From the IMG/VR virus record IMGVR_UViG_3300032053_000004, positions 128,001 through 192,000 of that record: 64,000 nucleotides of DNA. One strand, 5' to 3'. Below are positions 1,977 to 44,873 of this stretch, piece by piece (the stretch's first letter is position 1; each line of letters begins with the position of its first letter). The notes beneath the pieces are model-generated. The model was not told where the DNA came from. It did not search any database and saw only the letters and a program-made list of their open reading frames with translations. Position numbers and translations under genes: made by a program. This DNA comes from a virus. Its lineage: Duplodnaviria; Caudoviricetes.

Positions 1977-2000
1977 CTTTATTAAACTTTGGTGATTACA

Positions 2001-5160: not shown

Positions 5161-5168
5161 GAGAAGTC

Positions 5169-5546
5169 ATGCCTTTCATCATCACAGCCCCAGAGACCAA
5201 GACGATCACACAGAAGTACGTGATCACGAACCCAACCAACGACGACGTTGTAGAGGTGAGTGCCGTCCGGACCATCGACCGCGTGAACATCGAGCACATC
5301 ATCACCAGTATGCCGATCAACAACCCGACCGGCGTCTCCATGACAGTCAAGTGGAGTATCGGCTACATGGACGGAGTCGTATTCTTCCCGACCGAGCGGG
5401 GCAGTGCCGAGCTGGCCGGTGAAGCGTTGCTGACCAAGATGGTCGAGCCGGTGATTCCAGGGGCCACCCACTATGGTGATCACAAGGCTGCGCTATACGA
5501 GCTTCTCGTTGCATTGGGCCACATCCCGGCTGGATCAATCGTATGA
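5169..5546 (+). CDS. Small fibre-associated protein (chaperone/cap?), paralog of 39691..40071
   Basis: Shared MP..IT.PETK.ITQ, RTID.V.I, MP.NNPTG.S, WSIGYM...FFP and HY.D.K.ALY.LL. SD-like AGGAG upstream. Confidence 0.7.
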   Translation: MPFIITAPETKTITQKYVITNPTNDDVVEVSAVRTIDRVNIEHIITSMPINNPTGVSMTVKWSIGYMDGVVFFPTERGSAELAGEALLTKMVEPVIPGATHYGDHKAALYELLVALGHIPAGSIV

Positions 5547-8920: not shown

Positions 8921-9861
8921 GAGTCATTGTAACAGGTGGGGCTGGATTTATCGGTTCACATCTTTCTCTGAGTTTGTTAGAACTTGGACACGAAGTCATA
9001 TGCATTGATAACTTTTTTACATCTCGTAAAGAAACTATTTCTAATCTCACATCTTTCTCAAATTTTGAATTGATGAGACATGACGTTTGTGATCCATGGC
9101 ATATAGAAGCTGACCAAATATACCATTTAGCTTGTCCTGCGAGTCCAGTTCATTATCAAAAAAACCCGGTAAGAACTATTAAAACTGCTATGATCGGGAC
9201 TTTAAACGCTCTTGAATGCGCTCGCGATACTAATGCTCGCCTAGTTATCACATCGACTTCTGAAGTTTATGGGGATCCGATTATTCATCCTCAATCAGAA
9301 GACTATTTTGGAAATGTTAACCCAATTGGTGATAGAAGCTGTTATGATGAAGGGAAAAGAGTCGGAGAAAGTTTAGCTGTTTCTTGGTCAAAACAATACA
9401 AAACTGATGTTAGAATAGCTCGTCTTTTTAATACTTACGGGCCTCACATGGCGTTTAATGACGGTCGTTTAATCCCGAATTTTATCCTTCAAGCTATTGA
9501 AGGAAACCCTCTTACAGTTTATGGAGACGGATCTCAAACTAGAAGTTTTTGTTATGTATCGGACACAGTTCGTGGACTAATAAAATTAATGAACGTAGAC
9601 CAATCAGATAAAGTTCCTGTCATAAATATCGGGAACCCGGATGAAAGAACTATTCTTTCAGTTGCTAACGATATAATTAAATCAATAAACACTTCCCTGC
9701 GTACGGTTCATGAGCCTCTCCCGTCAGATGATCCTAAACAACGGTGTCCTGACATCACAAAAGCTAAACTTCTTCTTGATTGGGAACCTGTTGTTTCTTA
9801 TGAAGAAGGCATATCGAAAACTGTGAAGTGGTTTACTTCTGAATCTCGGAGTAGAAAATGA
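8917..9861 (+). CDS. uxs: UDP-glucuronate decarboxylase (UDP-xylose synthase), extended SDR
   Basis: GGAGFIG, IYHLACPASP, TSTSEVYG, RSCYDEGKR, ARLFNTYGP, RSFCYVSD and DDPKQRCPDI match the UXS subfamily signature. Confidence 0.88.
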   Translation: MRVIVTGGAGFIGSHLSLSLLELGHEVICIDNFFTSRKETISNLTSFSNFELMRHDVCDPWHIEADQIYHLACPASPVHYQKNPVRTIKTAMIGTLNALECARDTNARLVITSTSEVYGDPIIHPQSEDYFGNVNPIGDRSCYDEGKRVGESLAVSWSKQYKTDVRIARLFNTYGPHMAFNDGRLIPNFILQAIEGNPLTVYGDGSQTRSFCYVSDTVRGLIKLMNVDQSDKVPVINIGNPDERTILSVANDIIKSINTSLRTVHEPLPSDDPKQRCPDITKAKLLLDWEPVVSYEEGISKTVKWFTSESRSRK

Positions 9862-11135
9862 ATTGGGAATCTCGTAAAAATATCGGTCCTAATGGACCCT
9901 CAGAAACAGATTTTCCTGTTGCTGTAAATACCCCTCATTCTCAAGCTTGGGGCATACCTGAAGAATTTTTTATCGAAGAACTTCCTCTTCGAATGACTGA
10001 TAATCAATTACAATCCATGGTTCTTACCATTTGGAGAGAATTCATTCTTAATGATGAAGTTTTATCTGCAATTTCATTTCTTGAAAACGCACCATATAGA
10101 GTTCGCCATACTGAAGCAACCACTCGCGCCTTAAACATAACTAAAAAATCTATTGAGTGGATGTTTGATCATTCTAAAAGTCAAACTATAAATACTCCCC
10201 GTGATCCAAACGGGGTTCCATTCACAATAGAAGTTGGCAACATTCTTCCGGATCCTCTAACAGGACAACTTGAAGGAAGGTCTACTTGGATTACCAATAG
10301 ATTAACTCCTGGTTGCAGTCTTATAGATTTCGGTTGTATTGACGGATCTATGACAAACCGTTGGGGGATGTCAGGATTTAAAGTAACCGGTGTTGATCTG
10401 AGTATGAATTCAATATCTATAGCAAACAAGAAAGCTATTCAGTTTAATACTGGAGCTAAGCATATATGCTCTTATTTTAAGAACATTCCGAACCATATCA
10501 TACAAAATTCTTTTGATGTCGCTACCTGTAGTGATACATATGAACATCTTATCGACCCTATTGTTGATTTACTAGAACCGGCCAGAAAATGTCTTTCTGG
10601 CCATGGAAGAATGCTTTTAGTTACTCCTCATGGAGCCTGGTTTCGTGGTAAATTTCTTTCTTGGGCCCATCCTTGGTCTTGGTATAAGAGTGGTTCTTCC
10701 TGGTTAAAACCAGAACCAAGAGCTCATTTAGTAGCGCCAACTGTTTGGTCTGTTGCGGATCATTTTCGAAAATCTAAATGGTGGGTTAAATCCTCTGAGG
10801 TTGTTATACAGTCTTATGGGGACGTTCCTGGTCAAGGAAATGTGTGTGTGGAAGCTTTCGTTAACCCTCCACCTGTTTGGCCGGGTTTAGATATTGTAGT
10901 TTTGGGGTCTAATTTTGAATTGGCTGAATCTTTAGCTCTTCTCGGTAATAGAGTTCGCCATTTCGGACCTTGGGATGAAGAAAAGATATCGAATTTTGTT
11001 GATCATATATTTGACTCAAAACTATTTGATATCAAATGTGACGTTCTAATTTCTGATACGAACGTTGATTCTGTCGTTTCTAATAAAATTTATCCAAGCT
11101 CTGCTTCAGCTTCTGACGTTATCAATGGTGTCTAA
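9858..11135 (+). CDS. Class I SAM-dependent methyltransferase with degenerate GT4-like C-terminal stub
   Basis: LIDFGCIDG (motif I), VTGVDLS, FDVATCSDTYEH and GRMLLVTP. Confidence 0.8.
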   Translation: MNWESRKNIGPNGPSETDFPVAVNTPHSQAWGIPEEFFIEELPLRMTDNQLQSMVLTIWREFILNDEVLSAISFLENAPYRVRHTEATTRALNITKKSIEWMFDHSKSQTINTPRDPNGVPFTIEVGNILPDPLTGQLEGRSTWITNRLTPGCSLIDFGCIDGSMTNRWGMSGFKVTGVDLSMNSISIANKKAIQFNTGAKHICSYFKNIPNHIIQNSFDVATCSDTYEHLIDPIVDLLEPARKCLSGHGRMLLVTPHGAWFRGKFLSWAHPWSWYKSGSSWLKPEPRAHLVAPTVWSVADHFRKSKWWVKSSEVVIQSYGDVPGQGNVCVEAFVNPPPVWPGLDIVVLGSNFELAESLALLGNRVRHFGPWDEEKISNFVDHIFDSKLFDIKCDVLISDTNVDSVVSNKIYPSSASASDVINGV

Positions 11136-12283
11136 TGAGAATTGCTTTCTTAAATCATCCTATTGGGGTCAGAGACCCTGTTAATCCTGTTGATGTTTGG
11201 ACCTCTTCTAGAGGTTTAACAGGATCTGAGATTGCTTTTTTTAAATACGCAGAAGAACTAACCAAACTCGGTCATGACGTAAATTTATTTACCAAATTTA
11301 CTACTTCCGACCCGTTGGGTGGAAACGGACCTTATTGCATTCCTTATGATCAATGGGAAAGCATTTATTCTAAACAGAGTTGGGACGCAGCTTGTTGTTG
11401 GACGGTTGCGGACCCTCTTTCTTTAGTTGGTCCTGGAATATTTAGATTTTTGAATCATCAATGCAACGGATTTAGCGTCAGTCTTTCTGGTTGGGAAAAA
11501 TATGTTGATATAATAGCGCCTCTTTCTCATACTCACGCTAGAGCTTTATCTAAAGATACGTCATTTTCTAAGGATAAATGGAGAATTCTCTACAATGGCG
11601 TTGATTGTTCTAAATTTTATCCTGAAAATAAAGAGTCTGGAAAATTGATTTGGGCTTCCTCTTTAGATAGAGGACTTCATTGGTTATTAGAATCTTTTCC
11701 TTATATCAAAAGAAAAGCTCCTAACACGGAACTTCACGTCTTCTATGATTTCCATTCAATAGAACACGCGGCTGAGGTCTATTATCCTGGCGGGCAGCCG
11801 TATTTCACGAATGAACACTTTGAACTTGGGAACCGGGCTCGTTATATTTTGCGTGCTCTTCAAAAACTTGAAGGAAAAGGTGTTCATGTCCATAAATCAG
11901 TTAGTCGTTCCAGAATAGAACAAGAAATGAAAACTTCTTCTATCTTGGCCTATCCTTTAGATTCTATTTATTTTACTGAAACTTTCGGTGTCGTTGTTTT
12001 AGAAGCGTGTGCTTCAGGGACTATTCCCGTTCTATGTCTTGGCGATGCGTTCGGTGAGCTTTGGGGAGAAGTTGCTGAATCAGTTCCTCCCCCGTTTAAA
12101 GATCATAAAAATGAATATTTAGAAAAATTAATCAAATGTTTGACTGATGACGCATATAGGGACAATCTATCTAAAAAATGCGTTGATCATGCTAAGAAGT
12201 TTGAGTGGTCAGTTCTCGCTAAAGGATTGGAAAAGTGCCTCTTGACTAAGGGTCAAGAGGGCCTTCCTCTTGTTGATTGGTGA
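11135..12283 (+). CDS. Glycosyltransferase family 4 (GT-B)
   Basis: GLTGSEIA, NGVD, WASSLDRG and ETFGVVVLEACASG. Confidence 0.9.
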   Translation: MRIAFLNHPIGVRDPVNPVDVWTSSRGLTGSEIAFFKYAEELTKLGHDVNLFTKFTTSDPLGGNGPYCIPYDQWESIYSKQSWDAACCWTVADPLSLVGPGIFRFLNHQCNGFSVSLSGWEKYVDIIAPLSHTHARALSKDTSFSKDKWRILYNGVDCSKFYPENKESGKLIWASSLDRGLHWLLESFPYIKRKAPNTELHVFYDFHSIEHAAEVYYPGGQPYFTNEHFELGNRARYILRALQKLEGKGVHVHKSVSRSRIEQEMKTSSILAYPLDSIYFTETFGVVVLEACASGTIPVLCLGDAFGELWGEVAESVPPPFKDHKNEYLEKLIKCLTDDAYRDNLSKKCVDHAKKFEWSVLAKGLEKCLLTKGQEGLPLVDW

Positions 12284-12287
12284 CATA

Positions 12288-13415
12288 ATGAATTTAAAAA
12301 TTGCTTTTATTTATGGAAACTGGTGTTTGGGGAATCGTCCCATTAATGTCAATGAATTATTTACATCTAAACGGGGTCTTACTGGCTCGGAACTTTCTTG
12401 TTTTATGTTTGCAAAAGAAATGGCTAAGAAAGGTCATAACACTTCATTATTCATAGGCGGCGGGTCAGGAGAATGGGAAGGAGTTAAAATTCGCGATATA
12501 TCGGAGATATCATCTATTGATCCAACTTGGGATGTCGCCTATTCTTGGAATGAACCAGATCTTCTTCGTCAAGTAAACGCTAATTTGCGGATGATGAATC
12601 AGCAACTTAATGATTTTGCTTATTGTCAACCTGGGTATGACGAATCTGTTGATGTTTATACAAGTCCTTCACAAACTCATATGGAGTTTCTTAAACCTCA
12701 AACACCGTCGCCCAATAAATGGGCAGTTATTCCTAACGGTTGTGATCCGAGTCAATACTCAGCCGGGAAAAAAGTTCCTGGAAGAGTTATTTATGCCTCC
12801 TCTCCTGACAGAGGACTTCATCTTTTGATGCAGGCTTGGCCTCGTATTAAGAAAAATGCTCCCCATGCTCATTTGAAAATATTTTATAACATGGATTACT
12901 GGTTGTCTGTTTTTGTTGGTCAAGAACACTCTATATACCCTGATTCAATGGAATATGGGTATAGAGCTAGGTATATAGATTTAGCTTTTAAAAGATTTGC
13001 TGATTTAGGCGTAGAAAGAGTTGGGTCAGTTAGTCGAGAAGAAATAGCTCAAGAAATGTCAGAAGCTGAAGTTCTGGCATACCCATGTGATACTGCCCGT
13101 TTTACAGAAGGATTTTCTGTAACAACGATGGAGGCTTGCGCTGCTGGAGCTGTTCCAGTCATTTCTTCCGTTGATGCTTTAGGTCAAATATATGGATCAT
13201 TTATACCAACTGTTGAAGCCCCGGTGAAGAATAGATTAAATGAATTTGCTGATATAATATCTCGTTCTCTTAATGATGAAAAATTCCGGAATAGTGTCAT
13301 ATTTAAAGCAAAAAGTCTTGCCCATAAACATAAATGGGAAAAACTTTCTTCTGATCTTGAGAGTTTGATTATGAATAAGTTAGAGTTAAAAAGATGTTCC
13401 CAGCCTCTCATTTAA
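12288..13415 (+). CDS. Glycosyltransferase family 4, paralog of the upstream gene
   Basis: GLTGSELS, PNGCD, YASSPDRG and EGFSVTTMEACAAG. ATG at 12288 preferred. Confidence 0.9.
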   Translation: MNLKIAFIYGNWCLGNRPINVNELFTSKRGLTGSELSCFMFAKEMAKKGHNTSLFIGGGSGEWEGVKIRDISEISSIDPTWDVAYSWNEPDLLRQVNANLRMMNQQLNDFAYCQPGYDESVDVYTSPSQTHMEFLKPQTPSPNKWAVIPNGCDPSQYSAGKKVPGRVIYASSPDRGLHLLMQAWPRIKKNAPHAHLKIFYNMDYWLSVFVGQEHSIYPDSMEYGYRARYIDLAFKRFADLGVERVGSVSREEIAQEMSEAEVLAYPCDTARFTEGFSVTTMEACAAGAVPVISSVDALGQIYGSFIPTVEAPVKNRLNEFADIISRSLNDEKFRNSVIFKAKSLAHKHKWEKLSSDLESLIMNKLELKRCSQPLI

Positions 13416-14932
13416 CCCGTCACGCCCGCTCTCAAATAGAAAAGATTCCGGTACTTCTTATAGTGCCGCCGTCTATTTTTTTACTTGATGAACGTGTATT
13501 CATATCTTTAGGAATTTTGAAAGTAGCCGCGAGTCTTGAAGCGGCCGGGCATTCTGTTGAAGTTTTAGATTTATCAGGGATTGATAATTTTGAAGAAGTT
13601 TCTGCGATTCAGGCTAAAAATTCTTCTTCAAACATAGCTTGTTTAACTATCACAACTCCTCAACTCCCTGCGGCCGTAAAAATAGTTAAGTCTATTCGCA
13701 ACGCTCGTCCTGACATGAAAATTGTGGCAGGTGGTCCACATGTTACTCTAGTTCATTCTGCAGTTAAACTTGAGAGAAAAGCCGGTCGAATCGGTCGAGC
13801 TCACCGAGCCTTAACGAAACTTGAAGAAATTTTCAATGTTCTTGTGAGTGGTGATGGTGAAAATTCTATTTTTCAAGCTATTAGTGAAAATGCTTCTAAA
13901 GTAATTGATGCTGATGACCCTAAAAACGGTCTGTTTATGACGAATGAAGTTTATGGATCTACTCCTTGGCCCGCTCGTCATTTGATTGATATAAAATCAT
14001 ATAAATACACAATTGAAGGTTTTCCAGCAACTAGTTTAATAGCTCAACTTGGGTGTCCGTTTGGTTGCACATTTTGCGGAGGAAGAAACAGTAATATGCT
14101 CCGGAGGATTCGTACGAGATCCACCGAAAGCATTGTTGGAGAAATTGAGCATCTTCATAAAAATTACGGCTATACTGGGTTTATGCTTTATGACGACGAA
14201 CTTAATGTATCAAAAACAATTATTGAGCTTATGAACTCTATTGCGGATTTACAAGAGAAACTTGGAGTTGAGTTTAGATTACGAGGTTTCATTAAGAGTC
14301 AGTTGTTTACTGACGAGCAGGCTCAAGCTATGCGAAGAGCTGGATTTCGGTGGCTTCTTTGCGGATTTGAAGCTGCTAATGATCGGATACTTGAAAATAT
14401 AAACAAACGAGCCGATTTAGCAGATAATAATCGAGTGATGGAGATCGCAGCTCGTCACGATCTTAAAGTAAAAGCTTTGATGAGTGTTGGTCACGCTGGA
14501 GAGTCAGAAAAATCCATAATGGACGTGCGAGATTGGCTGCTTCAAGTTCATCCCGCAGATTTTGATGTAACGACTATCACAACTTATCCAGGCACTCCGT
14601 ATTATGATGAAGCTTTAGAACATCCGGAGTTGCCTGATGTTTGGACATATACGGCCAAAAACGGAGATAAACTTCATAGTTATGATGTAGATTATACTGC
14701 TGTTGCTGATTATTATAAAGGAGACCCGAGTGGCGGATACCATTCATATGTATTTACAGATTATTTATCTGGAGACGAAATAGTAAAACTTCGAGATCAA
14801 GTTGAAAACGAAGTTCGAGAAAAACTGAATATTCCATTTAATCCTGGGGCTCCAGGGGTTAAATATGAACATTCAATGGGTCAAGGACCTCTTCCATCAA
14901 ATATTCTTAGACAATCTAAAATTAATAAATAA
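13394..14932 (+). CDS. Cobalamin-binding radical SAM protein (class B methyltransferase-like)
   Basis: N-terminal B12-binding-type region (SLGILKVAA, VEVLDL, IVAGGPHVT, SGDGE) and the CPFGCTFC CxxxCxxC motif, followed by YDDELN, CGFEA and YPGTPYY. Confidence 0.9.
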   Translation: MFPASHLTRHARSQIEKIPVLLIVPPSIFLLDERVFISLGILKVAASLEAAGHSVEVLDLSGIDNFEEVSAIQAKNSSSNIACLTITTPQLPAAVKIVKSIRNARPDMKIVAGGPHVTLVHSAVKLERKAGRIGRAHRALTKLEEIFNVLVSGDGENSIFQAISENASKVIDADDPKNGLFMTNEVYGSTPWPARHLIDIKSYKYTIEGFPATSLIAQLGCPFGCTFCGGRNSNMLRRIRTRSTESIVGEIEHLHKNYGYTGFMLYDDELNVSKTIIELMNSIADLQEKLGVEFRLRGFIKSQLFTDEQAQAMRRAGFRWLLCGFEAANDRILENINKRADLADNNRVMEIAARHDLKVKALMSVGHAGESEKSIMDVRDWLLQVHPADFDVTTITTYPGTPYYDEALEHPELPDVWTYTAKNGDKLHSYDVDYTAVADYYKGDPSGGYHSYVFTDYLSGDEIVKLRDQVENEVREKLNIPFNPGAPGVKYEHSMGQGPLPSNILRQSKINK

Positions 14933-25397: not shown

Positions 25398-26426
25398 ATG
25401 GCTAGGAAAGAAACACATATGGAAAAGTCTGAAATCGTTCCAGGTTGCTCTATAGACGTTGGCACCATGAACTTGGTGGCCGCTCGTCGATCTGGGAAAA
25501 AAGTATCCACTAATCGAATTCGAAATGCTTTTATAGATTTAGAACCTGATAAGAAGAGAATGCTTAAGTTGAGTAACACGAGTTTCGTAGAACTCGGGGA
25601 TCGTCTTTTAGTCTTGGGCGACGAAGCTTTAGAAACCGCTAATTTGTTTAATCGTGAAGCTCGCCGCCCAATGTCTGGAGGATTGATGGCTTCAGGAGAA
25701 CTTGATTCTCAACAAATTATCAGTTTGATGATGAAAAAAATATTAGGAGATCCTACAGTCCCTAATGAAAAATGTGCTTATTCAGTCCCTGCCCCGGCTG
25801 TTGATGTTAATGATTCTGATATCACATATCATAAAGCAGTTTTAAAGAAAATTTTGACTGAGCTTGGATACGATGCCATAGATGTTAATGAAGCTTTAGC
25901 CATCATATTTTCAGAGTGTGGTAATGAAAATTTTTCTGGCCTTGGGATAAGCTATGGTTCTGGTATGACTAATGTTTGTCTTGCCTATAACGCCATGAGT
26001 GCCATGGAGTTCTCTTTAGGGAGAGGCGGGGATTACATAGATCGTGGAGCCGCTAAAGCTGTTGGCACTACAGCTGCTCGAATTTGTTCTATTAAAGAAG
26101 GTAAGTCTAAATCTGTAGACATAACTAAACCTGAAACTCGGGAAGAAGAAGCTATAGCTTTGTTCGTTCAAACTCTCATAGATTATACTATAGATAATAT
26201 CATTACTCATTTTCATAATGTAAAAAGTGAGCTTTTCATACCGAAACCAGTTCCTATAATAGTTTCCGGCGGGACTTCATTGGCTAATGGATTTTTGGAG
26301 AAATTTAAGGAACGATTTAAACTTCATTCAGGAAAGTTCCCGTTTCAAGTTTCAGATATAAGGGCTGCTGCTGACCCTATGACAGCTGTGTCTACCGGAC
26401 TGTTATTATTGAGTCAGATGGATTGA
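25398..26426 (+). CDS. Actin-fold (MreB/FtsA/ParM-like) ATPase
   Basis: Phosphate-1 IDVGTMN, connect-1 NEALA, phosphate-2 SYGSGMTN, GGDYID, adenosine motif IVSGGTS, connect-2 DPMTAVSTG. Confidence 0.82.
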   Translation: MARKETHMEKSEIVPGCSIDVGTMNLVAARRSGKKVSTNRIRNAFIDLEPDKKRMLKLSNTSFVELGDRLLVLGDEALETANLFNREARRPMSGGLMASGELDSQQIISLMMKKILGDPTVPNEKCAYSVPAPAVDVNDSDITYHKAVLKKILTELGYDAIDVNEALAIIFSECGNENFSGLGISYGSGMTNVCLAYNAMSAMEFSLGRGGDYIDRGAAKAVGTTAARICSIKEGKSKSVDITKPETREEEAIALFVQTLIDYTIDNIITHFHNVKSELFIPKPVPIIVSGGTSLANGFLEKFKERFKLHSGKFPFQVSDIRAAADPMTAVSTGLLLLSQMD

Positions 26427-28586: not shown

Positions 28587-31500
28587 ATGGGAATCGGACC
28601 TTTCACCACATACGCACCTCCTGGAGTTTACACGAGCACCTTAGTTGAACCGGCCGTCGGTCAACTTTTAGGTGGTCTTCGTATACCTGTACTAATTGGC
28701 ACAGGCCAAGAATCTATGTCTCAGGACAATTATGAAATTGTCCGTGGGTCTAGCAGCGTATCCGATACTCCGATCTTCGGAGAAGACGTCGCTGCCCGCT
28801 GGGTTGTTAGTGGTACTAACACCAACCCGGTCCTTGGTAACCAAACCGGGGATCTTTTCAAGTTCCGAGTTCGGAACTATCCGATCGTAGATGGGACTGG
28901 CATCGGGCGGACTGCCTTTGACGCTAACCGCGTTGCAGTTTCTGTCAATGGCCAACCTGTATCTGTTTCTGGTGTTGATGGCACTAACGGCATCGTCTCT
29001 CTTTTAATTGCTCCTGAGCCTACTGATATTGTTACAGTTAATTATTATTTCCACCGTAAAGATACCAGAATCACCGATGACGTCTCGATTCAGGTGACGC
29101 TCGGATCTGCCGTTCTGATTGTTCCGAGAGTAGAGACATATGTCATAGTTACTGGTGTTAACGACACATTAATCGTTAATGTCAATGATTCGGCCAGTTC
29201 TTCGACGATCGTTTTCCCGGCGGCTACATATACCGCTGCTTCAGCGGCTAATGCTATTAATATAGCGGCCATTCCGGGTCTCACAGCCTCGGTCCATGTT
29301 GATAATCAGGCCTTGAATCACGTTCAGCTCGTTGCTCAAGGAAACGTTCTGATTGGTTCAGGAAACGCCAACGGAACCTTCGGACTCAATCCGGGCGCAT
29401 ATACGAATAGAAATCGTAGTTTCCGAGTATTCAACGGTCCGATCGTTGACGGGTCTGATGGTGGCATTACGACCACTGATCCTTCGAAGGTCGTGGTTAT
29501 GGTTAATGGCACTCAGGTTCTCGCTTCGGCGGTGGACGGTGCCAATCGTTTAGTGACTCTTTCGTCTGCTCCTTTTAATGCAGCGATAGTTACTATTCAA
29601 TACTACTTCAACACATACCAAGATACTTTCGATTATCTCCCGAATTCAAATATCGTTTCGACCGGGAATGTCGGCATATCCCCTGGCCGTCGGGACTATC
29701 TGAACGGCCCCGATTTCATCGTCATAAACCAAGGCGATCAGTCCATAATTCAGTGGGGTACCGCCTTCCAGGTTCAGCCGGGAACGAGAACCGGAACCAC
29801 GTTTTTCGATGGAACCCAAGTTCTTGGGTTACTTGTCGATGATCGCATATTTGCGATAGAGTGTGCTCGATTTACTAATCCGACTACAAATTCGATCGAG
29901 ACGAATGTTTGGACGCTTCCGCTCCAGCCTACGACCGGAAATGGGCGTGATACGCCTCTTTCAACTTCTGTATTCAATGCCATAACGAATGGCAGAATTG
30001 ATCTTCCAACCGATCAGCCTGAACTGGTTACTGCTTATGTTGGAAAAACGGTCCGCGACGCTCTCGGGCGTCCTCCGGTCACCGTTCTTGCGGTTGATTC
30101 TGTGACCAATAATATAACTCTTAAAGATCCGGTTCCAGCGGATTATAGAGTTTACGCAACATTCTGGTACAATCGTATTCAGGATGACACTTATACCCTG
30201 ACGGTCATCAACGCTGGTTCTACTGGTGTTGGTACGTATAACGTCGCATCCCAAGCTCAGGGTCGTAATCTTCTGAGTATGAGATTCGGAACGAAGACGG
30301 CTCTTCCCCAATCGGTTAATTTCCCGAGTGGTTCAGAACTCAATCCCGACGCGATTCAATTCGGTGGGAACCCGGTTTCTGAAACTGCGACTATTACTTT
30401 CACGTTGCAACCGGCGACTCACGCTTCGTTCACCAATGCGAACGCGGAGCCGTACGATCTGTTTGCCCCAGGGTCGAACATTTTCGGGAGCGTCATTATT
30501 GACGGTGTTCCGATCAGCGTGAACATGTCTACGGCTTATCCGGCAACTCTCGCCGGTCAGCCGGTGTTTACTCCGGCAACTCTCGTTTTCGCGGCGACGG
30601 ATCGTCTCGTTCTTGAAGTTGATGGTGTTTCGCTCAGCCCAATCGATGTGAGCGCTCTCACTACGCTCTCGGCTGTTGCGAACTCGGTCAATGAACAGAC
30701 TGTTATCGATCTCGCAAATGAGCTGAAGGCGGATTATAACTCTCATATTGCATCTACGACATATCATCTTGCAGCGGACGTCGCTAACCCGGTTACATCT
30801 CCTGATGCAACCTCACTTGCATCTGCTATTACTCTCATAAACGAGATGCAGGGTGACTACAACGCCCACAGAGTCAGCGTAGTTTTCCATCCAAACGCTG
30901 ATATAATTAACGTATCGGCGGCGGCTGCAGCTGTCGATCTTCCGACTGCCGTCACACTCGCTAATGAACTGAAGACCGTATTTAACTCTCATCGCGTTCA
31001 GTTCAATACAACGAACGGAAACGTTCATGTTATTGATGATACAGTGAACGTTGTTTCCACTCCCAATTCTGGTGGAGTGGCAACAGTTATCACTTACGGA
31101 ACCGAACAGGTTCTGGGTCTTCAGAGCACGAAGACTCCAGCAGCAGCACCTTCTGGATTGAATGATCTTTCTAGAACCAAGGTTTTGATCCCGGTTCTTT
31201 CGGGCCAAACTGACGCGGCGTCTAAAATCGGCCTCCAGTCCAATTTGGAAGCCACTGGGTCTTACAACTCGATCAATCAGCCTGGATTCCAAGTTAGTGG
31301 AAACGCCGGACCATTCAATATTTCAGCATCGGTTACTGATCAGTTTAGGTTCAATATTGACGGAACTGATTTTACTTCAATTCTTCCGTCAGGATCAACG
31401 ACTTCAACTACAGCAGTCGCCAACGCCATCAACGGAACCATAGCTTCAGCGGCCGACATAGCAACCGCTACAGCTACGCTCGTTACTCTTGCAAACGATA

Positions 31501-33632
31501 TCAAGACTCAGTTTAACCTTCACATACCGTCTGTTGTTTTCCACACGATTGCTGACGTCGTTAATACCATAACGTCTCCTGCTGCAACAGATCTCACGAC
31601 GTCCATAACGCTTTTGAATGAAGCAAGACTGCGCCATAACGCTCATCGGGTTACTGGCGCTTTCCATCCAGCTCCGGATACGATAAACGCTGTTCTTGCG
31701 TCTAACGCAACGAATCTTGGAACAGCGATTACTCTCGCCAATGAGATTAAGGCTGAGTTTAATCGTCATCGGCTTCAGACTATCGGTGCTGTCAATGTTC
31801 ACGTGGCTGATGACGCCGTAAACGTTGTTGCGGCAGTGGATGTGCTTTTTGCAAATCCTGCGGCCTTCGCAGGAACGTTGACCGGTCAGTATGCAGGTAA
31901 GCTCCTCCTCCGTTCCTTCGTCAATACTGTTCAGTCGGTTGTGACTACTCAGGACGGAACGGCAAACTCAGTTCTTGGATTCTCGAGTTTTGTAGACGCT
32001 TTCCGTGACCAGCCTACGGCTTCGGATATCGCGTCGGCTTTGGATGCGAATACGACATTCTTCGGAGCAGTACCGGTTCTCCCTGCGGTTCTTCGGACTA
32101 GTTCCAAGAGCATTGCATGGGCGATATCCGTAGCTGGTCTTGGAATGTTCCTCCAGATTAACTCGGATACTGCCGGTTCGACGTCAACGATTTCGTTTGC
32201 TTCTGTTGCAAACACGGCGTTCATTCCGGATACTGGGATCGGAATTACTCCAGGAATCTCCGGAGATACTGGAGAAGCCACTCACTCGGGCTTCACGGTC
32301 ACTTCGTCGGACTTGATTAACGGTTCTAGTGGAACTGGTTTCCCAGGCCAGACTTACACGGACGCCCGTACCGGTCTTCGATTCACCATTCTTCCTGCTA
32401 CGAGCGGAGATTACGCGATCGGTGGGAGTTTCACTCTCCTCATAGGATCGACTTTCACCTGCGACGCGTCAATTCCGACTCGCCAAGTTCCGGGTATTGA
32501 GACTACGGTTCTGAATACGAACGGTATGGCCGCTGGTACTACGGCGTTCTTGTCCACATACCTCAGGACTGGCAATGAGCCTAGGAACGGGGATGTTTAC
32601 TACATCTCATATCAGTTCGCGAAGACTGATATTTCTACGGCTCTTTTCCGGGATCTCAAGAGGATTCAACAGAACTTCGGACCTCCGACGCCTGAATTCC
32701 CTCTGAGTTTGGCTGCTCGTTTGGCTCTTTTGAACGGTGCCGTTCTCGTTGGAATTCGTCAGGTTCTTCGGGCTCCGAATTCTTCCCAGGCTTCTCTGCA
32801 ATCATATGTCGAAGCGATTGATGATCAGCAGAAACCGATTGCTGGGAACATTAAACCGGATGTGATTACTCCTCTCACGTCTGACCCCCAGGTATTTGCT
32901 TACCTGAACCAACACTGTGCTTTCATGGGTTCACCTCGTCAAGAAGGTGAGCGTATCGGAGTTGTTGGTGTTGCGGTTGGAACCAACCCTCTCGGGGTTC
33001 AAGCTATCGCTAAGGGCTTGGCTTCTGAGCTCATGATTGTGGTTTATCCTGATTCATACGTGGTTACAATCACGGATACGGCGTCAGGTGGAAACCTCGA
33101 TCTTTTGATTGATGGGACTTATTGTGCTGCGGCCTTGGCCGGAACGGCATGCGCTCCTTCAATCGACGTGGCTACTCCTTGGACTCGTAGACAAATCCAA
33201 GGGCTCAAGCGCGTGGGTCGTATTCTTGATCCAACGGATGCCAACCAGACGGCTGTTGCTGGTGTTACCGTCATTGAGCAAGTTGAGTCGGGTCTTCGGG
33301 TTCGTCACGGTCTCACGACAAACCTGGCCTCAGTCATTACGCGTACTCCTTCTGTCATATTGACCATTCAATATGTTCAACAGACCATGCGTAAGGTCCT
33401 GGATCCGTTCATCGGCCAGAAGTTCAATGGTCAAATTCTCAAGTCAATTGAGAGTGCCATGGTCGGAGCTTTCTCGACTCTGATCGATAATCAGATCGTG
33501 GCCAAGGTTTCGGGCATATCGGCAACTGTCGATGATCAGGATCCGACGATTGCTCGAACGGAAGCCATTTACGTTCCTGTCTTCCCGCTAGAATATATAG
33601 TATCTATACTTTCTATTCGTATTAGATTATAA
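28587..33632 (+). CDS. Contractile tail sheath protein, 1681 aa, with many inserted domains
   Basis: N-terminal YAPPGVYT. C-terminal sheath core (VRHGLTT, TPSVILTIQYV..MRKVLDPFIG, YVPVFPLEYI). Confidence 0.93.
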   Translation: MGIGPFTTYAPPGVYTSTLVEPAVGQLLGGLRIPVLIGTGQESMSQDNYEIVRGSSSVSDTPIFGEDVAARWVVSGTNTNPVLGNQTGDLFKFRVRNYPIVDGTGIGRTAFDANRVAVSVNGQPVSVSGVDGTNGIVSLLIAPEPTDIVTVNYYFHRKDTRITDDVSIQVTLGSAVLIVPRVETYVIVTGVNDTLIVNVNDSASSSTIVFPAATYTAASAANAINIAAIPGLTASVHVDNQALNHVQLVAQGNVLIGSGNANGTFGLNPGAYTNRNRSFRVFNGPIVDGSDGGITTTDPSKVVVMVNGTQVLASAVDGANRLVTLSSAPFNAAIVTIQYYFNTYQDTFDYLPNSNIVSTGNVGISPGRRDYLNGPDFIVINQGDQSIIQWGTAFQVQPGTRTGTTFFDGTQVLGLLVDDRIFAIECARFTNPTTNSIETNVWTLPLQPTTGNGRDTPLSTSVFNAITNGRIDLPTDQPELVTAYVGKTVRDALGRPPVTVLAVDSVTNNITLKDPVPADYRVYATFWYNRIQDDTYTLTVINAGSTGVGTYNVASQAQGRNLLSMRFGTKTALPQSVNFPSGSELNPDAIQFGGNPVSETATITFTLQPATHASFTNANAEPYDLFAPGSNIFGSVIIDGVPISVNMSTAYPATLAGQPVFTPATLVFAATDRLVLEVDGVSLSPIDVSALTTLSAVANSVNEQTVIDLANELKADYNSHIASTTYHLAADVANPVTSPDATSLASAITLINEMQGDYNAHRVSVVFHPNADIINVSAAAAAVDLPTAVTLANELKTVFNSHRVQFNTTNGNVHVIDDTVNVVSTPNSGGVATVITYGTEQVLGLQSTKTPAAAPSGLNDLSRTKVLIPVLSGQTDAASKIGLQSNLEATGSYNSINQPGFQVSGNAGPFNISASVTDQFRFNIDGTDFTSILPSGSTTSTTAVANAINGTIASAADIATATATLVTLANDIKTQFNLHIPSVVFHTIADVVNTITSPAATDLTTSITLLNEARLRHNAHRVTGAFHPAPDTINAVLASNATNLGTAITLANEIKAEFNRHRLQTIGAVNVHVADDAVNVVAAVDVLFANPAAFAGTLTGQYAGKLLLRSFVNTVQSVVTTQDGTANSVLGFSSFVDAFRDQPTASDIASALDANTTFFGAVPVLPAVLRTSSKSIAWAISVAGLGMFLQINSDTAGSTSTISFASVANTAFIPDTGIGITPGISGDTGEATHSGFTVTSSDLINGSSGTGFPGQTYTDARTGLRFTILPATSGDYAIGGSFTLLIGSTFTCDASIPTRQVPGIETTVLNTNGMAAGTTAFLSTYLRTGNEPRNGDVYYISYQFAKTDISTALFRDLKRIQQNFGPPTPEFPLSLAARLALLNGAVLVGIRQVLRAPNSSQASLQSYVEAIDDQQKPIAGNIKPDVITPLTSDPQVFAYLNQHCAFMGSPRQEGERIGVVGVAVGTNPLGVQAIAKGLASELMIVVYPDSYVVTITDTASGGNLDLLIDGTYCAAALAGTACAPSIDVATPWTRRQIQGLKRVGRILDPTDANQTAVAGVTVIEQVESGLRVRHGLTTNLASVITRTPSVILTIQYVQQTMRKVLDPFIGQKFNGQILKSIESAMVGAFSTLIDNQIVAKVSGISATVDDQDPTIARTEAIYVPVFPLEYIVSILSIRIRL
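30711..31829 (+). repeat. Two modules (30711-31055, 31488-31829), each with three ~41-aa His-His-Asp repeats
   Basis: Consensus L-x-N-[ED]-x4-[YFH]-N-x-H-x(6-11)-H-x3-D-x2-N in all six copies. Confidence 0.9.
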
Positions 33633-33764: not shown

Positions 33765-34100
33765 ATGAAGCCTTCTCAGATCGCTCAAGCTTTAAATCAT
33801 ATTGCTTCTAAAATTCAGGCTTCAAAGAATCCTGATAAAAATCTAGTTGCGAGGGATTTAAAGAAAATTATTGCTCAAATTGACGAAGATGGCTCTATGA
33901 CTGAAGACGACTTCATTAAAATGATTGAGAAACATTTGCCAGAATTAAAAGAATGTATGGGAAAAGGGACTTCTGAAGAAAATCAAGAATTAGAAAAATA
34001 TATGAAAAAACATTTAGGTTTGGATAATTGGGATGAAATAATATCCAGAGCAGGAAAAGTTCTGAAAACCATGATTAACTGGGTTGAATCAAAGAAATAG
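33765..34100 (+). CDS. MKPSQ-leader protein 5
   Basis: MKPSQIAQALNHIASKIQASKNPDKNLVARDLKKIIAQI leader, with a helical payload. Confidence 0.85.
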   Translation: MKPSQIAQALNHIASKIQASKNPDKNLVARDLKKIIAQIDEDGSMTEDDFIKMIEKHLPELKECMGKGTSEENQELEKYMKKHLGLDNWDEIISRAGKVLKTMINWVESKK

Positions 34101-34473: not shown

Positions 34474-36000
34474 ATGAGCGGTTCTACCCGTAAGGCTATC
34501 AATCAGGTGTCTAAAGATCCTGGTTTTTCTATAGTCAAGTCTACTCGTGAGGCTTCCTATTTACCTGCTCTCCAAGACCCTGATTATCAAATAAACCCAC
34601 AAATTGCTGGGATTATAAATTACACATTAGATAGTTTCTTTTCAAAGCAAGACGAACGGAATCGTTTTTATAATCAAAATCTCCCAAATATACCGGCTGA
34701 TCCTTCCGCAGCCTTGAAAGAGGCTTGGCTTGGATGTGAAATTCATAAATGTGTTCGTATTCATCAAGCTTATCCTCCCTTTTTAAGAAATTTACATGCT
34801 TGGGCTTTTTCCAAGATGTTTGAAGGTGGGAAATATGAAATCATCCCGGTTCTAGATACATATGAATGGAAAGATTTCATTAAAGGGAACGCTGAATTTA
34901 AAATAGAACTTTCTCAGTTAAATATTGATTTTGGGAACGCCATAACGCTTCCTGTCCACGGTCTTTTCTTTGTTTTAAACAAGACAAATAGTACTCATTT
35001 ATTAGTCAATTTTGATTTTTGTTTTTATGATCCGACTTGTTCTATCTCAGTTAATTCTTCGCCTGAGAATAAAGCTGATGCAGAACAATTTCTTCGAGAT
35101 TTTGAAACTTCTGTTCTTCAAAATGATATATACTACAAGAAGTGTTTATCATACAATCGGGGGACTCTTGATTTCATACAAATCACACCAACATCTTGGT
35201 CAGACATAATTTTAAAGCAAGAAATTATAGATTCAATCCATAATAATACGGTCGGAGTTTTAGAAAATATAGACGCGCTTCAAAGTGTAGGTATGTGCCC
35301 CAACCGAAATATTATTCTAATATCTCCGCCAGGAATGGCAAAAACTACCATTTTCCGTGCAACTGCTATGGAAGCAGTTGGTAAATTTACTTGTATTTGG
35401 TGCACCGGAAAATCAATAAGTTATCCGGAAGATGTTACTTCACTTTTTCAGGCAGCTAGGACTCTGGCTCCATGCATAATTTTTATTGAAGATATGGATT
35501 TATTTGGACGAACTCGAGGAGATTTACATGGTCAAGAGAGCCATGTTCTAAACGAATTCTTAGCCTGTCTTGATGGTGTTCAAGAAAATATGGGTGTTGT
35601 CGTCATGGCTTCTACCAATGATATTAATTCTATGGACGAAGCTCTCATAAATCGCCCTGGGCGATTTGATGTTAAAATAGAAATACCTTTGCCCGACGAA
35701 AACGACCGGGCTCGCATGCTTTCTGAATTTTTAAAGAAATTTCATGCAAAGCCAGATAAATCGATTACTAATGAAGCATGGACTAATGCTATTAGAATGA
35801 CTGATGGTTTGACCGGCGCATATATGAAAGATCTGGCAAAATCTGTAGTTATACGATCAGTGGCTGCTGGTCGGTGCCAGAATAATTCCATCCAATTTAG
35901 TTCAGATGATCTCATAGGGTCAGCTGAACAAATACTGAAGAACTTCTCAATAGGTAAAAAAGCCGTTTATGGGGATGGGTCAGACAACTCTAATCAATAG
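34474..36000 (+). CDS. AAA+ ATPase (classical clade-like, single AAA module, no protease domain)
   Basis: Walker A SPPGMAKT, Walker B IIFIEDMD, sensor ASTN, second region of homology DEALINRPGRFD. Confidence 0.92.
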   Translation: MSGSTRKAINQVSKDPGFSIVKSTREASYLPALQDPDYQINPQIAGIINYTLDSFFSKQDERNRFYNQNLPNIPADPSAALKEAWLGCEIHKCVRIHQAYPPFLRNLHAWAFSKMFEGGKYEIIPVLDTYEWKDFIKGNAEFKIELSQLNIDFGNAITLPVHGLFFVLNKTNSTHLLVNFDFCFYDPTCSISVNSSPENKADAEQFLRDFETSVLQNDIYYKKCLSYNRGTLDFIQITPTSWSDIILKQEIIDSIHNNTVGVLENIDALQSVGMCPNRNIILISPPGMAKTTIFRATAMEAVGKFTCIWCTGKSISYPEDVTSLFQAARTLAPCIIFIEDMDLFGRTRGDLHGQESHVLNEFLACLDGVQENMGVVVMASTNDINSMDEALINRPGRFDVKIEIPLPDENDRARMLSEFLKKFHAKPDKSITNEAWTNAIRMTDGLTGAYMKDLAKSVVIRSVAAGRCQNNSIQFSSDDLIGSAEQILKNFSIGKKAVYGDGSDNSNQ

Positions 36001-40071: not shown

Positions 40072-40310
40072 ATAGGATAGCTTTTAGAATAGCATCCTTA
40101 GATGTTTCTGTTGAAATAAACGGCGATAATATATCATTAACTAGAAGTGACGGAAAAATCATAAAGGGAACTTACGTAGAGCAAGACGATGAGGCGACGT
40201 TACAGGAGAATACTACGGAATTGGCTCCGGATCAGGCTTTATGGATCCTGGAACAAGCTTCGAATTTTGGTCCCACTACTACCTGGGATGAATTAATATC
40301 TATTCTCTAA
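40068..40310 (+). CDS. Small protein with N-terminal IAxRIA motif
   Basis: MNRIAFRIAS start; acidic body; ATGA overlap with the upstream gene. Confidence 0.65.
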   Translation: MNRIAFRIASLDVSVEINGDNISLTRSDGKIIKGTYVEQDDEATLQENTTELAPDQALWILEQASNFGPTTTWDELISIL

Positions 40311-42056
40311 TACCCAACGTTTTTTCCCCAAATCCCAAATTCTAATAAATCCCTGAGCTTCTCTGAGCTGATACTCAGTTAAATTTGTTTCTTTTTCTAG
40401 TTTCTTTTTTCTTAAACCGGATTTATGAAACCTCTTATTTTCTTTTATCCAATAATAATCAGGAGGGATTTCCCCGTCATGTTTAAACCCTATTTTTGAA
40501 TAAACGTTACCTTCAAAAAGACGATTATCAGAAAAAGAAACTATAGACTTAGGAGAGTACTCTGAAATAAATTGTTTCAAAATTTTAGACCAGATCCCAT
40601 GAACTCTATATTCAGGATCTGCAACCATACGGACCAGTTCCCAATCATGGGAAGACTGTCTTGTCGGGTGTTTAAATGAAGAACATGAAATTAATTTGTT
40701 TTCAAAGAAAACTCCATAACTTATCCTAGGTTTGCAAGCTCCTATATAATGATTTGTGTTGTAGAACTCATCAGCTTCTTTAAAGTTTATTAATTTTATT
40801 TCACATTGTTTTGGTCTTAAATTAAAACTTGGTTTTTTAAAATTTATTTTATTCAATATTAAACTAATAACAAAATCCTTTTTATTTTTCCATTCATCTT
40901 CAAAAATTGCTAGATACTGAAAATTCGAAGAAATTGCTGATTTGTATTTTATTAAGTCTCGTTTTCTTGAATGAGTTAAACTATGATATTTAAAACCATA
41001 AAATTCAATTAATAAATTTGAGTCTGGTAAATAAATATCATATACACAACCGTTTATTTTATGATTTAAAGAAATATTCATCCCAAGTGATTTTAAAGAT
41101 TCAAGTACTTCTTGCTGTCCGACTTCTTGCTGTCCTAAATGGTTTTTTTTCAAAAATGTTCTTATTCTATGACAATTAACACAAACAAGTTCACATTTAG
41201 AAGTTTCTTCTAAAACTTTCTCCACACTTCCATTATGAAGAATATTTATATTCCCAATTTTCTCCCCTTTTATATGATCGAAATCAAGCGTCCAATACCT
41301 AAAAACGTGTTTACAATCTGCACATTTCTGGTTATCTTTAATTGATATTATGTTTTTTCGAGCAAGCCTCTTATCAGTTCTTTTTTGGTTGGCTTCGTGG
41401 TTTACTTTTCTCATACATTTTTTACAGTATGAATGGGTTTTTCTTGTTTTCAACAATGTGAAATTTTCAGTATTTTTTAAAATTTCACATTTCATACATT
41501 TTTTTGTTTCACATCCTTCTGTTATTCCTATGTCCATTATTTTTGGGAAAAAATTTCTATTTTTTAAGGTTGGAATCGTATGTTCGTTATCATGAGTTTC
41601 ATTTCTATGACAATTTGCACACAAAAGGATACATTTTTTTATTTCTGCATCAACTTTTTCTTGTTTTTTACCATAAAGTTTTGATATCGATGAGATTTTT
41701 TCTTCAATATGATGGAAATCAAGAACATGTGGAGGATAGGGTATCATACAAAATGAACAAGATTTATTTTCTTTGAAAGATTTTATATACTCAGCGGATC
41801 TTTTAAAATATTTTTTTCTTATATTTTTTTCTATTTCTGGATTTTCATTCCTCCAAGATTTTATTTTTTTACCATGGCAAATTTTACATATATTTTTAAA
41901 ATTGCGATTCGATATGAATCTAGATAGTGGTTTTTGATTTTTACATTTTTTACAAATGTTTATTATTGTTTGATTCTTTAAATAATACTCTTCATATTCT
42001 TTATCTAGAATTAAGTTCTTTTCTTTTCTTCTCTTTTTTTCTTCTTCATTCCTCAT
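40293..42056 (-). CDS. Hef-like free-standing endonuclease: two HNH-type Zn domains + Vsr/PD-(D/E)xK-like domain + GNAT(Mom)-like C-terminus
   Basis: LDFHH...LLCANCHR and LDFDH...LVCVNCHR; YDIYLP...LIEFYG..YHS; WELVRM...YRVHGIWSKILK. Confidence 0.78.
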   Translation of the reverse strand: MRNEEEKKRRKEKNLILDKEYEEYYLKNQTIINICKKCKNQKPLSRFISNRNFKNICKICHGKKIKSWRNENPEIEKNIRKKYFKRSAEYIKSFKENKSCSFCMIPYPPHVLDFHHIEEKISSISKLYGKKQEKVDAEIKKCILLCANCHRNETHDNEHTIPTLKNRNFFPKIMDIGITEGCETKKCMKCEILKNTENFTLLKTRKTHSYCKKCMRKVNHEANQKRTDKRLARKNIISIKDNQKCADCKHVFRYWTLDFDHIKGEKIGNINILHNGSVEKVLEETSKCELVCVNCHRIRTFLKKNHLGQQEVGQQEVLESLKSLGMNISLNHKINGCVYDIYLPDSNLLIEFYGFKYHSLTHSRKRDLIKYKSAISSNFQYLAIFEDEWKNKKDFVISLILNKINFKKPSFNLRPKQCEIKLINFKEADEFYNTNHYIGACKPRISYGVFFENKLISCSSFKHPTRQSSHDWELVRMVADPEYRVHGIWSKILKQFISEYSPKSIVSFSDNRLFEGNVYSKIGFKHDGEIPPDYYWIKENKRFHKSGLRKKKLEKETNLTEYQLREAQGFIRIWDLGKKRWVLENRY

Positions 42057-43030: not shown

Positions 43031-43085
43031 TTGGAGTGTACTGTTCTACAAGAAGACTTAAGTTTTTATTCTTTTTGCGTTTTTG

Positions 43086-44873
43086 ATGACAATTATATCT
43101 TCAGATCATTGGAAAAATACCATATATGGGAGACTTCATATGAAGTCTCCCATATATGTTGAAGAATTTTCTCATAAAAAAGTTGTTTGGATCTGTAGTT
43201 GTGGAAATGAATCAAAAATTGGAGTTTATAGTGTTACAACTGGAAACACTAAAACATGTGGAAAATGTGATGTTTTAAGTGCTGATGAATTAAGAAAAAT
43301 TAAGTATGGAAAACTTTCCATTGAGTTTCCTTTAGATACTCAAAGAGGTTCTGGTTCTAAAGTATCTTGGATTTGTGATTGTGGAAAAAAGAAATTCATT
43401 AAATTCTATGATGTTATCAGAGGTCATGTTAAAACCTGTGGAAGTTGTAATAAATTAACAAATAAAGACTTTGAGGGAATTAAGTATGGAAAATTGATTA
43501 TGATTAAACCTGGTGATTTTCATCCTGGGTCAAATAAGATAGTCGAATGGGCGTGTGATTGTGGAAAAGTAGCTCTTAAATCAGTTAAAACAGTTACGTC
43601 AGGAAACACAAAATCCTGTGGCTCATGCAGTGTTCTTTTTTCTAACTATTGGGAGAAAGCCGAATTTGGTTATTTAAGAATGAAAACTCCAATTAATATT
43701 TCTCCTGGATCAAATAAAAAAGTTGAATGGGCGTGTAAATGTGGAGGAGTTACAACTTCTGATGTTTATTCAGTTACAAATGGAAAAATTGTTCGATGCA
43801 ATTTTTGTCGTTCTCGAGCAACAGACTGGTATGAAGAAAATAAAGAAAACCTTCGTTCTCTCAAAACCCCGATTCAAATATATACAGTCCCTTTAGGGTG
43901 GATAACCCCATTAGAATTAATATATGGATATGATAAGCCTTTTCAAGCTTTATGTGGAGCTTGTAATTCAGTATATTTTCCGATTTGGGGTAATATAGTT
44001 AAAGGGTCATCTTTAACTTGCGGATGTGTTTCTAATCATATAAGTTCAGCGCAAAGAAATATCGCTAAATTTTTGGAATCTCTTAATCTTTGTGTATCTT
44101 TAGAATTTAAAATTAGCGCCTTAAAGTATGATATTTTTGTCCCGTCTAAAAATTTTTTGATTGAGTATAATGGTCTTAAATGGCATAGTAACCCTGAATC
44201 TAAACGTCGTGATTTAGAAAAATATGAATTAGCAATATCTAAAAGATATGAGTTTGTTTCAATATTTGAAGATGAATGGTTACTCAATAAATCTAAAGTT
44301 GAAAATTTGCTCAAAAATAAATTAATTAAAACTAATTCAAAGAAACTTCGTCCTTCTCAGTGTGAAATTCGAAAGATTGGTTCAGAAGTTAATGGATTTT
44401 ATGAAAAATATCATTATATTGGTAAGTGTAAAGCAAAAATTCACTATGGGGTTTATTTTGAGAATGAATTAGTGTCAGCTATCTCTTTTGGGATACCAAC
44501 CCGCCAAACTTCAAAATACCCTTGGGAACTCATTAGAATGGCTTCAAATCCTGAGTATAGGATTCATGGCATATGGTCAAAACTGTTGAAACAATTTATT
44601 TCTGAGTATTCCCCGAAATCAATAGTAAGTTTTTCAGATAATAGATTATTTTCCGGGAAAGTTTATGAAAAAATAGGATTTAAATATGATGGAAATCTTT
44701 CTCAAGATTATTATTGGGTAAAAAATGGCAAAAGATTTCATAAATCAGGACTTAGGAAAAAAGGAAAAGAAAAAATTTCAGGATTCACTGAGTACCAACT
44801 TCGAGAAGCCCAAGGATATTCTAGAATTTGGGATCTCGGGAAGAAACGTTGGGTCCTTGATCTGGTAGTGTAA
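43086..44873 (+). CDS. Hef-like free-standing endonuclease: W-x-C-x-CG repeats + Vsr-like domain + GNAT(Mom)-like C-terminus
   Basis: Four W.C.CG...V..G..K.CG.C repeats; YDIFVP...LIEYNG.KWHS; C-terminal ~180 aa closely similar to 40293..42056. Confidence 0.78.
   Translation: MTIISSDHWKNTIYGRLHMKSPIYVEEFSHKKVVWICSCGNESKIGVYSVTTGNTKTCGKCDVLSADELRKIKYGKLSIEFPLDTQRGSGSKVSWICDCGKKKFIKFYDVIRGHVKTCGSCNKLTNKDFEGIKYGKLIMIKPGDFHPGSNKIVEWACDCGKVALKSVKTVTSGNTKSCGSCSVLFSNYWEKAEFGYLRMKTPINISPGSNKKVEWACKCGGVTTSDVYSVTNGKIVRCNFCRSRATDWYEENKENLRSLKTPIQIYTVPLGWITPLELIYGYDKPFQALCGACNSVYFPIWGNIVKGSSLTCGCVSNHISSAQRNIAKFLESLNLCVSLEFKISALKYDIFVPSKNFLIEYNGLKWHSNPESKRRDLEKYELAISKRYEFVSIFEDEWLLNKSKVENLLKNKLIKTNSKKLRPSQCEIRKIGSEVNGFYEKYHYIGKCKAKIHYGVYFENELVSAISFGIPTRQTSKYPWELIRMASNPEYRIHGIWSKLLKQFISEYSPKSIVSFSDNRLFSGKVYEKIGFKYDGNLSQDYYWVKNGKRFHKSGLRKKGKEKISGFTEYQLREAQGYSRIWDLGKKRWVLDLVV

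Follow-up and report, generated by a model that had tools for sequence, protein, structure and literature searches.

The locus considered here raises the question of why a phage tail protein should carry six repeats, evenly spaced within two triplets, each with two histidines, an aspartate and several asparagines at fixed positions, and whether these residues serve to bind metal. It lies in a window of 64,000 nucleotides (the whole stretch of DNA that was analysed), corresponding to positions 128,001 to 192,000 of the 202-kilobase (kb) IMG/VR virus record IMGVR_UViG_3300032053_000004, which belongs to a huge phage and is 47% complete by CheckV. The gene in question occupies positions 28587-33632 on the plus strand and encodes P0001, an oversized tail-sheath-like protein of 1681 residues (the translated part of this open reading frame, ORF, being 28587-33629). 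The answer proposed in the present work is that the repeats build two copies of a plug-in helical bundle, which would be held together by a histidine-metal clamp and would decorate the tail; a probability of about 0.55 is given to this proposal as a whole.

The six strings in which the initial annotation had seen a period of 41 residues were all recovered from the translation, at residues 709, 750 and 791 and again at residues 968, 1009 and 1050 (nucleotides 30711 to 31823). The spacing is exactly 41 residues within each triplet, and the two triplets are 177 residues apart. The invariance claimed for six positions (Asn, Asn, His, His, Asp and Asn) holds in the alignment of the six repeats, although the claim had missed a seventh invariant residue, a leucine. 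The pattern N.H.{5,14}H.{2,4}D..N occurs six times in P0001, whereas 20000 shuffled versions of its sequence contain it 0.0016 times on average, and 13 of the 20 histidines of the protein fall within residues 720-1072. Compared repeat by repeat, the triplets share 46-51% identity (BLASTP E = 5e-34), yet at the level of the DNA only short matches of 60-75% are left between them, and Tandem Repeats Finder reported nothing. The loss of similarity in the DNA and its retention in the protein thus indicate that the repeats are old and have been maintained at the protein level.

The grouping of the repeats into two modules of three, as originally proposed, is also borne out. Module 1 spans residues 693-830 (30663-31076, on the plus strand as are all features of this gene) and module 2, a second copy of the same domain, spans residues 952-1088 (31440-31850); a profile of the module run against its own record recovers them with E = 9.1e-46 and E = 5.3e-44, respectively. 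Module 1 comprises three helix-plus-arm repeats, in each of which the first and second histidine are here termed His1 and His2. Repeat 1 (residues 697-737; 30675-30797) carries N711, N718, H720, H727, D731 and N734; repeat 2 (residues 738-778; 30798-30920) carries N752, N759, H761, H768, D772 and N775; and repeat 3 (residues 779-824; 30921-31058) carries N793, N800, H802, H814, D818 and N821, with an insert of 5 residues between both histidines. In the second module, the corresponding residues are N970, N977, H979, H986, D990 and N993 in repeat 4 (residues 956-996; 31452-31574), N1011, N1018, H1020, H1027, D1031 and N1034 in repeat 5 (residues 997-1037; 31575-31697), and N1052, N1059, H1061, H1072, D1076 and N1079 in repeat 6 (residues 1038-1082; 31698-31832), the last with a 4-residue insert between its histidines. 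The similarity of the triplets extends into the 45-60 residues upstream of each, where the N-terminal half of the host domain split by module 1 (residues 658-703; 30558-30695) aligns with that of the host domain split by module 2 (residues 898-958; 31278-31460). The unit that was duplicated therefore consisted of a host domain together with its triplet. A Flagellin_IN or FliD-like identity of the host domains is not claimed, Pfam having given no match for these pieces.

The idea that each triplet folds as a pseudo-threefold helical bundle receives support from a confident three-helix prediction and from the occurrence of the repeats in multiples of three. AlphaFold2, supplied with 77 aligned modules, models module 1 with a predicted local distance difference test score (pLDDT) of 95.8 and a predicted template modelling score of 0.90, placing helices at residues 694-722, 744-762 and 785-803 and joining them by 21-residue linkers without regular secondary structure. 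A local profile of the single repeat found runs of three, six and nine repeats 40, 11 and 5 times in a first set of proteins and 165, 30 and 6 times in a larger one, in which fragments and weak edges account for additional runs of one and two; family-wide, multiples of three are far commoner than other repeat numbers. The strongest couplings between variable alignment columns connect arm positions 33-39 with helix positions 19-26 at values of i+j between 56 and 65, and this nearly constant sum is the signature of an arm that runs antiparallel to a helix. The pair His1-His2, which came out as the top coupled pair, was not used, being an artefact of nearly invariant columns.

Structural searches place the predicted fold among generic helical bundles, which were the only matches of VIA-align (Z 7.2 or less). 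The best of these neighbours is gp41-5, a single-chain five-helix bundle (PDB 3o3x; Z 7.2 over 109 residues, root-mean-square deviation 3.0 Å, 4% identity). Foldseek, run with the module model against the PDB and BFVD, found nothing at E <= 0.001. In the ESM Atlas, one unnamed viral cluster matches the module fold with a template modelling score of 0.74, and a feature search with the module gave no usable match there. Taken together, the long and equal connectors, the rule of three, the match to gp41-5 and the couplings argue for three parallel helices with the arms running back along them, in a bundle that would be closed by three units.

The initial annotation had recognised no named family for the repeat, and neither Pfam, PHROGs, the PDB nor BFVD supplies one. 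Pfam gave no match for the module in 77 modules or 102 carriers, the hits in PHROGs were fragments in short families, including one annotated as head fiber protein (27.7 bits), the best hit of a profile search of the PDB had E = 0.28, and no description of the module was found in literature searches. The domain is nonetheless widespread: a word-based search with residues 690-830 returned 54 proteins of 256-1957 residues. An exhaustive search with a profile of the 77 aligned modules, counted in clusters at 50% identity, extended the family to 2101 representatives with E <= 1e-3, of which 1404 reach E <= 1e-10; these proteins are between 167 and 3370 residues long. Searching other proteins with such a profile, a check that had been suggested at the outset, thus yields a large family that includes no known one among the curated families. 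A tblastn search of 50,697 GenBank phage records with three family members gave one weak match, in an uncultured Caudoviricetes record, and a scan of genome bins with a narrower alignment found eight loci, all of them in metagenome-assembled genomes of unrelated phyla.

The carriers of the module include sheath proteins recognised by Pfam (P0009, P0030 and P0032), a Phage_tube_2 tail tube protein of the siphovirus type (P0038) and small proteins that are little more than one module; most other carriers contain no known domain, as judged from the Pfam search of 102 carriers. In P0001, two related host domains hold a module each. In its orthologue P0023 the first host domain is intact and lacks a module, and both modules stand in tandem in the second host domain. 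The module thus changes position between orthologous sheaths, which marks it as a self-contained plug-in. A new plug-in three-helix domain of about 130 residues is very probably at hand.

The role of the histidines is the more delicate part of the question. Conservation was assessed over 1464 repeats from about 190 proteins, in which His1 is present in about 100% of 1450 aligned repeats and His2 in about 100% of 1293, followed by the Asp (96%), the last Asn (82%), the first Asn (78%) and the best conserved leucine (alignment column 13; 77%). His1 occupies the d position of a hydrophobic a/d stripe in all six repeats of P0001 and sits within the last helical turn, two residues or fewer before the helix end. 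In a parallel bundle, a d position would bring the three His1 residues together on the axis. The commonest spacing in the family is His1-x6-His2, with the Asp at His2+4; in P0001, four repeats have His2 at +7 (x6), and both third repeats have it at +11 or +12.

In the arrangement inferred from these data, each copy of the module is built from three units of 41 residues, in every one of which a helix is predicted to lead into a non-helical return arm. The units would close as a single-chain parallel three-helix bundle on which the arms lie back, in effect a one-chain "trimer of hairpins". His1 would end the a/d stripe of each helix, and the three His1 residues would converge at one pole of the bundle. 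His2, usually six residues further on in the arm, would most likely join this cluster, whereby five or six imidazoles would grip a single transition-metal ion, iron or a different one, and so clamp the structure. The Asp at His2+4 is probably a second-shell hydrogen-bond partner of His2, while the Asn residues probably serve to fasten arm and helix to each other. The whole domain would be a plug-in for loops in exposed domains of virion tail proteins and, at two copies per sheath subunit, would serve as a rigid surface decoration.

A putative structural metal ion in the module, the likeliest reading although its odds are judged to be only about even, is made plausible by the invariant histidines, by the core register of His1 and by the precedent of Gp45, the receptor-binding protein of the Staphylococcus phage phi11. 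The trimeric coiled coil of Gp45 has an octahedral Fe3+ site at its C-terminal end, to which each of the three chains contributes His42, from the final turn of the coil, and His50, from the interruption that comes next; residues at His+4 form a second shell that holds the imidazoles (PMC4901313). By analogy with Gln54 of that protein, the Asp of the repeat is probably a second-shell partner of His2, and the three Asp ligands envisaged in the initial annotation are less likely.

Several observations weigh against the metal clamp, and some of them favor an alternative in which the same fold contains no metal. The His, Asp and Asn residues would then form a buried network of hydrogen bonds and salt bridges that staples the arms to the helices and caps the bundle, and their conservation would be purely structural. 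To begin with, the conservation figures are somewhat inflated, since the repeats came from a profile that rewards the same residues. Modules with only five histidines are common (58 of 251), because their third unit lacks an arm and stops with its helix, from which the next module continues directly; the family thus does not depend on a strict His6 site. In two carriers (P0057, residues 1038-1157, and P0005, residues 717-756), ordinary three-repeat modules are followed by helix-less arrays of the arm motif, IH-x3-D-x2-N in units of about 17 residues. These arrays may form a different, fibre-like structure, and they suggest that His2, Asp and Asn may make a structural turn of their own. In the coupling analysis, the Asp varies together with an Arg at His1+1, as the partners of a salt bridge might, and AlphaFold2 is confident in the fold without any ligand. 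The likeness to Gp45 is itself imperfect, in that the spacing there is His42-x7-His50 compared to x6 in the module, where it also varies in the third repeat, and the module has no detectable sequence similarity to Gp45 or to any solved protein. Moreover, the proposed histidine cluster derives from helix register and analogy, not from distances.

Other points speak against a metal-free network. Without a ligand it would be unusual for three imidazoles to meet on one layer of a core. In about 1450 repeats, His1 never gives way to Gln, Asn or Tyr, whereas the column-13 leucine (77%) varies, and a very similar two-histidine arrangement binds iron in phi11 Gp45. The purely structural explanation is regarded as a serious contender, yet the less likely one.

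The proposal of a histidine-metal clamp on the tail further involves the identity of its carrier, which the initial annotation had named as a tail sheath. This assignment is sustained by transitive homology, leading from the C-terminus of P0001 to a second protein, P0227, and from there to the family PF17482. P0227, a protein of normal size (656 residues), came from a search with the C-terminal 392 residues of P0001. The last 173 residues of P0001 (1508-1680; 33108-33626), designated here as the sheath C-terminal domain, align end to end with its C-terminus (31% identity, E = 8e-22), and residues 566-654 of P0227 match PF17482 (Phage_sheath_1C) with 28.5 bits at a cut-off of 26.9. An orthologue fragment that is 65% identical to P0001 (P0223) passes the same cut-off with 29.0 bits. 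Both P0001 and P0227 begin with PGV(Y/F)TS at residue 12-13, a similarity with an E value of only 0.021. About 10 full-length orthologues of P0001, of about 1560-1950 residues, were found in metagenomes; their identity to it is 61-70% in residues 1-420 and 62-73% in residues 1280-1681, and it is lower in between, where the modules are rearranged. Known sheaths are composed of a conserved N- and C-terminal core with optional, outward-facing inserts between the two (PMC9230969).

The possibility that P0001 is another large tail or fibre protein, which merely ends in a sheath-like C-terminal domain, draws on the transitive nature of this evidence. P0001 as a whole and in seven pieces returned nothing useful from sequence searches of Pfam, PHROGs and the PDB, the sheath models PF17482 and PF04984 (Phage_sheath_1) did not match the protein or its parts at E values up to 10, and the Pfam sheath models found no sheath family in the entire 202-kb record, which is itself less than half complete. 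The C-terminal 402 residues gave no match in a profile search of the PDB, and their AlphaFold2 model, built with 12 orthologues, reached a pLDDT of only 45. Pairwise BLAST found no similarity between the termini of P0001 and the Pfam-recognised sheath P0009. Such a protein would have to share with P0227 both the start motif and an end-to-end C-terminal alignment to a relative that scores above the Pfam sheath cut-off, and its orthologues would keep their termini and vary the inserts between them in the manner of sheaths. A different tail protein is thus considered improbable, and P0001 is, on the transitive evidence, very probably the tail sheath. A 170-residue ORF downstream of the sheath gene has no relative in the PDB, and the tube gene could not be named from it. 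The sheath also contains a second internal duplication, in which residues 71-175 and 246-350 (28797-29111 and 29322-29636) represent two copies of a strand-rich-looking domain of about 100 residues, with local alignment scores of 99-109 compared to a 99th percentile of 89 for segment pairs.

Since insertions in sheaths face outward (PMC9230969), the module is best read as a rigid, possibly metal-stapled knob on the surface of tail proteins, comparable to the immunoglobulin-like (Ig-like) domains that occur there. A more active role has been suggested, whereby the modules would be working metal sites for scavenging or display (e.g. of iron offered to host siderophore receptors), for mineral adhesion, as a trigger of contraction or for catalysis. 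The presence of two modules on each sheath subunit and of many subunits in a sheath, 138 in the case of T4, would amount to hundreds of sites per tail, and the literature contains the notion, called the "Ferrojan horse", that phage tails may carry iron. The data, however, give no pointer to metal exchange, to a substrate pocket or to coupling with contraction, and they lend no support to scavenging or mineral adhesion. The module also occurs in tube proteins, which do not contract, and in small proteins that stand alone; it can thus hardly be a contraction device in general, and the contraction trigger proposed in the initial annotation is unlikely on these grounds. Catalysis, proposed there as well, fares no better, as a buried ion that is fully coordinated by histidines, like that of Gp45, would leave no free coordination site. 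Working metal sites of any of these types are therefore held to be distinctly improbable. Slightly less probable still is a pH sensor, in which five or six imidazoles lying side by side would take up protons in acidic surroundings, so that the bundle loosens and the tail surface changes. This idea is favored only by the histidine clustering expected from helix register and opposed by a module that is predicted to be compact and rigid, with no sign of conformational change.

It is a separate question whether every module of a virion contains a loaded His5-6 metal centre, such that a tail would display several hundred transition-metal ions on its surface. This extreme form of the metal clamp is considered improbable. 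If true, a loaded tail would carry far more ions than the few dozen in T4-type fibres, and with more than 2000 carrier clusters, tail-bound metal would matter in environmental phage biology, for example as an iron reservoir or as a bait for host receptors.

The surroundings of the sheath gene contain several other genes of interest. Three genes upstream, a 342-residue actin-fold protein is encoded at 25398-26426 (plus strand; Pfam Volactin, PF25216, E = 9e-72). A small gene (33765-34100, plus strand) directly follows the sheath gene, and two genes after the sheath gene a 508-residue AAA ATPase is encoded at 34474-36000 (plus strand; Pfam AAA, E = 2.7e-23). The first 6400 positions of the window (1-6400) have a G+C content of 0.51-0.62, compared to 0.35-0.43 in most of the window, and hold several co-oriented ORFs of 125-604 residues. 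A sugar-modification cluster follows at 6425-14932 (plus strand), comprising a fused GT2/TPR/GT1 protein of 831 residues, an NAD-dependent epimerase/dehydratase, a methyltransferase, two GT1 proteins and a B12-binding radical SAM protein. This cluster might serve in the glycosylation of virion proteins. A similar block, with the fused GT2/TPR/GT1 protein, the epimerase/dehydratase and a GT1 protein fused to the B12/radical SAM protein, is kept in L003, a related phage of 342 kb, and in L004; upstream of the same sugar-gene cluster, at the position that corresponds to 1-6400 of the window, L003 codes for a 431-residue protein of six His repeats. Further along the window, two divergent, paralogue-like genes (40293-42056, minus strand, and 43083-44873, plus strand) each encode an MTES_1575 restriction-endonuclease-like domain together with a GNAT or Mom-like domain, to which the second adds treble-clef zinc fingers. 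These may constitute a DNA-modification or anti-defence pair.

The present work thus brings to light a large family of more than 2000 clusters that has neither a Pfam entry nor a solved structure and is almost absent from cultured phages. Its fold is nonetheless predicted with very high confidence, and its histidines rank among the most strictly conserved in any virion decoration. If metal is bound, histidine-metal clamps, until now seen only where the three chains of a phage fibre meet on their threefold axis, would for the first time be known as a portable domain of a single chain, and estimates of the metal content of a phage particle would change. Even without metal, phage surface domains, most of which are Ig-like, gain an all-helical type. 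The module also offers a scaffold that is compact, built from repeats and perhaps very stable, and that lends itself to expression and testing.

Two of the elements combined here are of kinds already known, namely decoration domains on phage tails and histidine-metal clamps on the threefold axes of phage fibres. What is new, as far as the searches show, is the domain itself, which is undescribed and whose fold has no significant match, and the portable single-chain histidine cluster, which is unreported in the literature searched. Among decoration domains, the closest comparison is with the extra, mostly Ig-like domains that are inserted in the sheath, tube and capsid proteins of phages and are commoner in large phages (PMC9230969). 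These share with the module an optional and mobile character, the outward-facing position that it would have, a location between conserved sheath termini and an occurrence in different virion proteins. They are, however, beta-sandwiches, whereas the module is predicted to be all-helical plus coil, with three internal repeats and invariant histidines. P0001, at 1681 residues, is also far larger than the sheaths described in that study.

With regard to architecture, the module resembles gp41-5 and the trimer-of-hairpins cores of class I fusion proteins, in that three parallel core helices would be accompanied by return segments in their grooves. The return segments of gp41-5 are helical and those of the module are not, and a Z of 7.2 is within the range of unrelated helical bundles, so that the resemblance is one of architecture only. 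With regard to the histidines, the T4 gp37 tip and the P2 gpV and phi92 gp138 spikes have trimeric His-x-His iron sites, as cited in PMC4901313. From what is cited there, three strands related by symmetry supply six histidines to the octahedral site of a single ion in a part of the phage tail, much as is proposed for the module. These sites are situated in intertwined beta-helices, whereas the module is helical and made of a single chain, and no His-x-His motif is found within the modules, their histidines being separated by x6 or more. The nearest parallel remains phi11 Gp45, likewise a phage tail protein with two histidines per strand, the first in the last helical turn and the second a few residues later in a non-helical part. 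Gp45 is a homotrimer, whereas in the module one chain would provide all three strands. The metal is proven in Gp45 and putative in the module, and the Gp45 site is part of a long fibre stem, whereas the module is a portable domain.

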